Positions 5,410 through 5,617 of a stretch of DNA of 38,946 nucleotides are shown piece by piece. The notes beneath the pieces are model-generated. The model saw only the letters and a list, made by a program, of their open reading frames with translations. It had not been told where the DNA came from and searched no databases. The stretch is taken from assembly GCF_003334255.1 (NCBI RefSeq), contig NZ_QOWU01000055.1; one strand, given 5' to 3'. The first letter of the stretch is position 1. The number at the start of each line of letters is the position of its first letter. This DNA comes from Escherichia coli (GTDB lineage: Bacteria > Pseudomonadota > Gammaproteobacteria > Enterobacterales > Enterobacteriaceae). The position numbers were made by a program, and so were the translations under genes.

Positions 5410-5617
5410 GAATGTAGGTCGCATTCGGCACTTATTGTCGGATGCGATGCTTGCGCATCTTATCCGACCTACGAATCGCATCGAATCTGTAGGCCAGATA
5501 AGGCATTTTCGCAGCATCCGGCACTTATTGTCGGATGCGATGCTTGCGCATCTTATCCGACCTACAAATCGCATCGAACCGTAGGCCGGATAAGGCGTTT
5601 ACGCCGCATCCGGCAAA
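5410..5617. repeat. BIME: tandemly duplicated REP-containing unit (about 93-bp period, 2 copies) between convergent ybhJ and ybhC
   Basis: Near-identical direct repeats starting at about 5426 and 5519 (CGGCACTTATTGTCGGATGCGATGCTTGCGCATCTTATCCGACCTAC.AATCGCATCGAA), each followed by a GTAGGCC.GATAAGGC...GCATCCGGCA REP palindrome. Confidence 0.85.

Follow-up and report, generated by a model that had tools for sequence, protein, structure and literature searches.

The convergent genes ybhJ and ybhC of Escherichia coli are separated by a spacer of 233 nt that contains an array of repetitive extragenic palindromic (REP) sequences. We analysed this array in a 38,946-nt stretch of contig NZ_QOWU01000055.1 (assembly GCF_003334255.1), the whole of which is called the window below and supplies all coordinates unless another source is named. 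The window matches positions 800,368-839,313 of MG1655 gene for gene, with 14 single-nucleotide polymorphisms, none of them near the array. ybhJ ends at 5397 on the plus strand and ybhC at 5631 on the minus strand, and between them five REP hairpins of alternating orientation occupy positions 5414-5615: a half Y, a Z2-like, a Y, a second Z2-like and a final Y element, or Y'(half)-S-Z2-l-Y-S-Z2-l-Y when the linkers are included. This is almost certainly a non-coding array of the bacterial interspersed mosaic element type 2 (BIME-2), the one named REP72 in EcoCyc. A first-pass annotation of the window had described, at 5410-5617 between the same two convergent genes, a direct tandem duplication of about 93 bp with few mismatches and with two different REP palindromes in each unit. 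That description holds: the units are 93 and 92 nt long, differ by six mismatches and one single-base gap, and each combine a Z2-like palindrome of 36 nt with a Y-type palindrome of 35 nt. Unit 1 is preceded by a fifth element, a half REP (5414-5430), and the whole array falls inside the interval then noted.

The components of the locus are listed here; linker boundaries were taken from the alignment of the units, and the linkers, the left flank and the array as a whole carry no strand.

3136-5397, plus strand: ybhJ (putative hydratase), the convergent neighbour upstream; its stop codon is 16 nt ahead of the array.
5398-5413: left flank, AAAGCGCCATGTGAAT; together with the ybhJ stop codon it can be aligned, in the REP-less allele described below, with part of hairpin 1 (A-run, left arm and loop).
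5414-5615: the whole BIME-2-type REP array (EcoCyc REP72abcd), equivalent by offset to MG1655 805,781-805,982 and without differences from MG1655.
5414-5430, plus strand: a0, truncated Y-type REP GTAGGTCGCATTCGGCA, made of GTAGG and the 3' arm GCATTCGGCA; the internal 18 nt are gone, as judged by alignment to a1 and a2.
5431-5436: s1, head-to-head linker CTTATT, 6 nt.
5437-5472, minus strand: b1, Z2-like REP, 36 nt, ending in CTAC (the GTAG foot on the minus strand), identical to b2.
5473-5488: l1, tail-to-tail linker GAATCGCATCGAATCT, 16 nt.
5489-5523, plus strand: a1, internal Y REP, 35 nt, beginning with GTAG, with four substitutions relative to a2, three of which weaken the stem.
5524-5529: s2, linker CTTATT, 6 nt.
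5530-5565, minus strand: b2, Z2-like REP, 36 nt, ending in CTAC, with the same sequence as b1.
5566-5580: l2, tail-to-tail linker AAATCGCATCGAACC, 15 nt.
5581-5615, plus strand: a2, canonical Y REP GTAGGCCGGATAAGGCGTTTACGCCGCATCCGGCA, 35 nt, beginning with GTAG, identical at 35/35 positions to the Y REP at 31986-32020.
5631-6914, minus strand: ybhC (outer-membrane lipoprotein), the other convergent neighbour; its stop codon is 15 nt from the end of a2.
5492-5562, plus strand: the Y-S-Z2 pair a1-s2-b2, matched by the Rfam family naRNA4 (RF02564) with 60.7 bits against a gathering score of 59.5.
5167-5574, minus strand: open reading frame (ORF) of 135 aa, its N-terminus derived from the REP units and its C-terminal two thirds antisense to the 3' end of ybhJ.
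5408-5584, plus strand: a second REP-derived spurious ORF, 58 aa, with a GTG start and an internal repeat.

Unit 1 (5431-5523) and unit 2 (5524-5615) share about 92.5% identity. The repeat search returned two families of direct repeats, 5421-5485 against 5514-5578 (65 nt, 97% identity, spacing 93) and 5489-5523 against 5581-5615 (35 nt, 89% identity, spacing 92), as well as short-loop inverted repeats inside each copy of the unit. The longest exact direct repeat measures 47 nt, whereas shuffling 5300-5750 with preserved dinucleotides (200 shuffles) gave a mean of 8.2 (standard deviation 1.0) and a maximum of 13, so that the repeat is real and lies far above chance. The linker CTTATT is found between all Y-Z2 pairs, those of the five units of E. 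albertii included, and the position of a0 is occupied in other alleles by GCATCCGGCA. The internal Y element a1 has three broken pairs, and its non-standard pairs are flagged in the Rfam alignment; strain CX07 and Escherichia sp. E1V33 share its three stem substitutions.

The identification of the palindromes as REPs is supported by several lines of evidence. The 35-nt elements a1 and a2 and the 36-nt elements b1 and b2 all carry GTAG at the foot of the stem; they are extragenic and repeated in the genome, REP-containing queries finding 25-28 matches in the median genome; and four further REP loci lie within the window. Apart from its perfect match at 31986-32020, a2 is identical at 34/35 positions to two more Y REPs. 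The hairpin was scored over its 11 pairs in 15 aligned copies (five of Y, the canonical Z2, and b variants taken from ten genomes): 97% of the cells pair and four pairs have changed on both sides, against 30-38% of cells paired in control structures shifted by 1-3 columns. At alignment columns 10-11 and 26-27, the GC/TT positions, no copy is paired, which corresponds to the two-base stem mismatch of REPs. The compensated changes lie between the b-type, canonical Z2 and Y sequences, and no covariation within the locus is claimed.

With its flanking A, the b element has the 37-nt length of Z2 (Z1 being 29 nt long). It agrees with the canonical Z2 of the window (37218-37254) at 29/37 positions, with Z1 at 23-24 and with the Y copies at 27-28/37. 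Its eight differences from Z2 comprise two loop positions and six stem positions that form three compensated base-pair changes; judged by this comparison, b is a variant of Z2 and not the canonical form.

BIME-2 elements have been defined as combining Y and Z2 with a short linker, in tandem, with copies that are well conserved within a locus and vary in number among strains (PMC3333891). The array consists of Y and Z2-type REPs in inverse orientation and in tandem copies whose number differs between strains; the lengths of its linkers, 6 nt head-to-head and 15-16 nt tail-to-tail, fit this class. The MG1655 equivalent of the window contains no annotated transposase gene; the array does not form a REPtron but is a dispersed copy. 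Although the feature table of NC_000913.3 gives no repeat_region in this spacer, ybhC is listed with 'REP72abcd' in Table 2 of PMC10100675, citing EcoCyc, which means that the element is already catalogued. REP and BIME arrays in general, the variation in their copy number, the spurious ORFs to which they give rise and REP72 itself have thus all been described previously.

Independent support for the REP identity comes from strain MS14387 (NZ_LR130564.1), in which an IS1397 element of the IS3 family (at about 35-1467 of that locus, L018) interrupts the four-base TTTA loop of a2, since IS1397 is reported to insert specifically into REPs (PMC1525189). The insertion is bordered by ...GGCGTTT / GTTTACGCC..., suggesting that a 4-bp target, GTTT, was duplicated.

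To follow the array among strains, flank-only and junction-specific queries were run against 5426 complete E. coli genomes. The two-unit form was recognized by a 68-nt query over the l1-a1-s2-b2 junction (5473-5540), which has no 28-nt word in common with one-unit genomes. This unit-2 junction was found in 2780/5426 genomes (51.2%), at one place per genome, and a REP-bearing allele of any kind in 4858/5426 (89.5%). A REP-less spacer of 69 nt is carried by 509/5426 (9.4%). By subtraction, about 2078/5426 (38%) have one unit and about 59/5426 (1%) are in other states, of which the IS1397 insertion is an example. Similar proportions, roughly 55, 35 and 10% for two-unit, one-unit and REP-less alleles, were obtained from systematic samples of rows. 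When all E. coli records are considered, the junction occurs at 2788 places in 2781 records, one copy being on a plasmid; from the difference between these two counts, about seven records carry it twice, possibly as three-unit alleles or segmental duplications.

Three one-unit alleles were compared in sequence with the two-unit form. That of O45:H2 retains l1 and a2, that of ATCC 8739 retains l2 and a2, and that of OkiPb01695 retains l1 and the decayed a1. Each is the two-unit form less exactly one period of 92 or 93 nt, in a different register each time. In-register loss of a unit has thus occurred at least three times, and the one-unit alleles look derived. Exact loss of one period in differing registers is the pattern that marks misalignment between repeats. 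Copy number would then shift by replication slippage or unequal exchange, and the REP-associated transposase TnpA-REP may also contribute. These losses provide an illustration of how such an array contracts.

The REP-less allele has only 69 nt between the two stop codons, and these are occupied by two back-to-back intrinsic terminators (locus L003, 302-360), one for each gene, both called by the intrinsic-terminator scan:

L003 326-302, minus strand: terminator for ybhC.
L003 335-360, plus strand: terminator for ybhJ.

The scan reported three sites on these two hairpins, the first hairpin being scored on the plus strand as well. In the K-12-type spacer, the same scan of 5200-5800 detected no intrinsic terminator site. 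The REP alleles nevertheless retain TAAAAAGCGCCATGTGAAT after the ybhJ stop codon, and this sequence can be aligned with part of hairpin 1, namely its A-run, left arm and loop (the underlying alignment is that of TAAAAAGCGCCATGTGAATGTAGG to TAAAAAAAGGCGCTATGAAATATAGCG of the REP-less allele). On the strength of this alignment, the left flank 5398-5413 is likely a remnant of an older bidirectional terminator, and the retained flank suggests that the BIME displaced most of the older terminator region. In the predicted fold of the ybhC transcript (minus strand, 5398-5436), the head of a0 pairs with the retained terminator arm as AAGUGCC...GGCGCUU, followed by UUUA. This hairpin, which was missed by the terminator scan, may be a weak leftover of the old ybhC terminator.

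Outside E. coli, the locus was examined in a single scan of genome contigs that yielded six loci, E. fergusonii and Salmonella not being among them. Five units with 11 REPs are present in E. albertii NBRC 107761, two units in Escherichia sp. E1V33, one unit in E. whittamii and in the divergent 'E. coli' SCPM-O-B-8794, and a single Y in Escherichia sp. MOD1-EC7003. Citrobacter koseri has no REP and one hairpin terminator. The copy-number polymorphism that had been anticipated in the first-pass annotation is thus borne out by the comparison of strains and species, which gave 0, a single Y, 1, 2 or 5 units. The ybhC gene of E1V33 is 92.2% identical to that of E. coli, and in the array of E1V33 the internal Y shares the three stem substitutions of a1. 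The two-unit form is old, since E1V33 has it with the same decayed internal Y; the duplication is older than the split between E. coli and E1V33, or was exchanged across it, and is not a recent event in K-12. In two Z2 copies of E. albertii, changes that seemed compensatory proved on pair indexing to be uncompensated or in the loop, and were rejected as covariation.

What the array may do for its neighbours is suggested by its position and by its folding. RNA folding of the array gave -100.2 kcal/mol on the plus strand (z -7.1 against shuffles) and -114.4 kcal/mol on the minus strand (z -8.4 against shuffles). Both convergent mRNAs would carry the array as their 3' end, folded into very stable hairpins. 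By analogy with the REPs that have been studied, these hairpins could block 3'-to-5' exonucleases and attenuate read-through, and they would stand in for the two intrinsic terminators of REP-less strains. The presence of terminators in the REP-less allele suggests that the spacer needs some 3'-end structure, and since the array sits where REP-less strains have these terminators, the formation and protection of the 3' ends of ybhJ and ybhC is the role that we favour, with odds a little better than even. Spacing may matter as well: a2 lies 15-16 nt from the ybhC stop codon, and REPs no farther than about 15 nt from a stop codon can reportedly reduce translation by stalling ribosomes (Liang, Rudd and Deutscher, 2015).

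A 2026 preprint is consistent with such a role. It describes REP325 as a partial, partly Rho-dependent terminator that also stabilizes the upstream mRNA, and associates REPs between convergent genes with higher expression of both genes; about 40% of convergent-gene REPs are placed there within mapped bidirectional terminators. The natural series found at this one convergent pair, namely two terminators, one unit or two units in E. coli and five units in E. albertii, could offer a test bed for the claim that REPs act as terminators and stabilizers.

A possible contact with DNA gyrase has also to be considered. Gyrase cleavage sites are enriched in BIME-2 elements, mainly at Y REPs (PMC6379681). 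The array belongs by its class to the BIMEs preferred by gyrase, and gyrase binding at this locus is plausible by analogy.

For the explanation as a whole, that is, a BIME-2-type REP array whose unit number changes by repeat misalignment and which serves the 3' ends of both genes, we estimate a probability of about 0.8. Several observations weigh against it. Tandem Repeats Finder, run with three parameter sets included, never called the 93-nt period, and the repeat call rests on the repeat search, the pairwise alignment and the shuffle test. The b element departs from the canonical Z2 of this window at 8/37 positions, and on linker motif classes the array could formally be an 'atypical BIME'. 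The weakened stem of a1 and the uncompensated decay of some E. albertii copies fit neutral drift as well. Finally, the effects of REPs are, according to the 2026 preprint, context-dependent and not uniform.

The most serious alternative, which we nevertheless consider unlikely, is that of selfish or neutral repeat DNA: doublets left by a REP-associated transposase would have drifted and been lost at random, and neither ybhJ and ybhC nor chromosome topology would be measurably affected. It would account for a locus in which 0, 1, 2 or 5 units, and an inserted IS1397 too, are tolerated, and for the uncompensated stem changes in a1 and in several E. albertii copies; moreover, the REP effects reported in the preprint are variable, and terminal REPs are not linked genome-wide to longer mRNA half-lives there. 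However, the two-unit form and the hairpins b1, b2 and a2 have been kept over about 8% of flanking divergence, b departs from canonical Z2 by compensated pair changes, and the REP-less allele has terminators in place of the array.

A more ambitious version of the 3'-end role can be envisaged, to which we give only a small chance. Here the two terminators, the one-unit and the two-unit forms would be functionally distinct 3'-end modules that set the expression of ybhJ and/or ybhC. Copy number would be a heritable, reversible and selected dial, and the old two-unit form with its decayed internal Y would have been kept for that purpose.

The naRNA4 match raises a further possibility, that transcripts of the Y-Z2 pairs bind HU, bridge cruciform DNA and condense the nucleoid. 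The score of the a1-s2-b2 pair exceeds the gathering threshold, and condensation of DNA by HU and naRNA4 has been reported by Qian et al. 2015 (PMC4550694). The covariance model of RF02564, however, derives from the Y-linker-Z2 units of REP325 and recognizes any Y-Z2 pair: the single canonical Z2-S-Y pair of the window at 37218-37294, upstream of the ybiJ 3' end and near zbiJ and ybiE, matches it at 37221-37291 with 78.4 bits, more than the array does. The remaining pairs of the array score 37-42 bits, under the threshold, and the Y half of the matched pair is a1, with its three broken pairs. In addition, REP325/naRNA4 had no effect on nucleoid volume and there were no HU-dependent REP-REP contacts according to the 2026 preprint. 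We hold such a function for quite improbable.

It could also be argued that the tandem duplication is recent and private to the K-12 lineage, because the two Z2-like copies are identical and 47 nt are shared exactly between the units. This is already refuted, and its residual probability is very low: the unit-2 junction is present in 2780/5426 genomes, E1V33 has both units together with the three substitutions of a1, and the one-unit alleles appear to be derived, in three different registers.

Equally remote is the reading of the array as a BIME-1 or RIP-type element that recruits integration host factor (IHF), as had been implied by the term 'gyrase/IHF binding cluster' in the first-pass annotation. 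REP arrays are generally cited as IHF sites (PMC1525189), but the IHF site of BIMEs belongs to the long L linker of BIME-1 (PMC3333891). No site matching the IHF consensus WATCAANNNNTTR was found in the array. A strict consensus scan alone is a weak negative, since it missed the BIME-1 L linkers too, and a search for the L-linker core GCAATATATTGAATTTGC was added, with BIME-1 loci as positive controls. The core is absent from 5398-5630 even at three mismatches and present in the window at 15256 and 31960. The linkers of the array are 6 and 15-16 nt long and its second REP has the length of Z2 (36-37 nt), not that of Z1 (29 nt), so that the L core, the IHF consensus and a Z1-length REP are all lacking and the IHF part of the earlier proposal falls. 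The two BIME-1 elements lie between the convergent pairs uvrB/ybhK (15220-15315) and rhlE/ybiA (31921-32020); their 18-nt L cores are identical and the Z1 halves of both correspond to ES036 (RF02751) in Rfam.

As had been noted at the first pass, the minus strand contains an ORF of 135 aa with an internal repeat, MRFVGRIRCASIASDNKCRM being found at residues 1-20 and 32-51. Neither this ORF nor the one of 58 aa is annotated in the RefSeq entries of MG1655 or DH5alpha. With other alleles substituted between unchanged flanks, the 135-aa ORF shrinks to 104 aa (ATCC 8739) or 85 aa (EcN), lengthens to 147 aa (E1V33) or, at 116 aa, uses another start and frame (O45:H2), and it is gone in the REP-less allele, so the frame is not conserved across alleles as expected for a protein-coding gene. 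By its sequence the 135-aa ORF is spurious, and in practice both ORFs should be flagged as artefacts. That either is a real repeat-protein gene has next to no probability: both ORFs exist, yet both are unannotated, the N-terminal part is REP sequence with a length, start and frame that depend on the allele, and the rest is merely antisense to ybhJ.

Other features of the window and of the compared loci were observed in passing. Between ybhC and ybhB, positions 6961-6975 hold an exact copy of GCTTTTTTATACTAA, which we take to be the attB core of phage lambda. In MS14387 a tyrosine integrase gene adjoins ybhC in place of ybhB (L018 2919-3083), which fits a prophage integrated at the GCTTTTTTATACTAA site. 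A single Y-like REP remnant, GCCGGATAAGGCA...GCGTCCGGCA, lies at 19391-19418 between moaE and ybhL, and a molybdenum cofactor (Moco) riboswitch (103.6 bits) at 16545-16689 upstream of moaA. Both ends of the window differ from MG1655. Bases 1-77 are an IS1 end within ybhD, and no complete genome contains this IS1 junction in one piece. The last 75 bases (38872-38946) depart from MG1655 with CATAAGCGCTAACTTAAGGGTTG, presumably an IS186 terminal repeat, and the right junction is common, exactly, to 87 complete genomes.

When compared with known systems, the array shares its position with the bidirectional intrinsic terminators found here in 9.4% of E. coli genomes and in C. koseri, both placing hairpins at the 3' ends of the two transcripts. 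The REP array differs from them in that no U-run follows its hairpins and that it is undetected as an intrinsic terminator. With the BIME-1 elements of the window, also known as RIP or RIB (Z1-L-Y), it has in common the same Y REP and a location between convergent genes. These elements, in contrast, are single-copy and have a 29-nt Z1 and a 34-nt L linker with the core GCAATATATTGAATTTGC, none of which characterizes the array.

The resemblance to REP325 (naRNA4, yjdM-yjdN) lies in the tandem Y-linker-Z2 units, one pair of which exceeds the Rfam threshold, and in the position within a 3' untranslated region, where REP325 is a terminator and stabilizer according to the 2026 preprint. REP325, however, consists of six 77-bp units inside one operon with a 13-nt head-to-head linker, whereas the array has two units, a 6-nt head-to-head linker, convergent genes on its sides and one decayed Y. 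Compared with the BIME-2 class of Bachellier, Gilson and Hofnung (PMC3333891), the Z2-like element of the array has GTCGGAT...ATCCGAC where the canonical form has GCCTGAT...ATCAGGC. The likeness extends to the alternating Y and Z2-type REPs, the short head-to-head linker and the tandem copies, which are conserved within the locus, vary in number among strains and are extragenic, at the 3' ends of genes.

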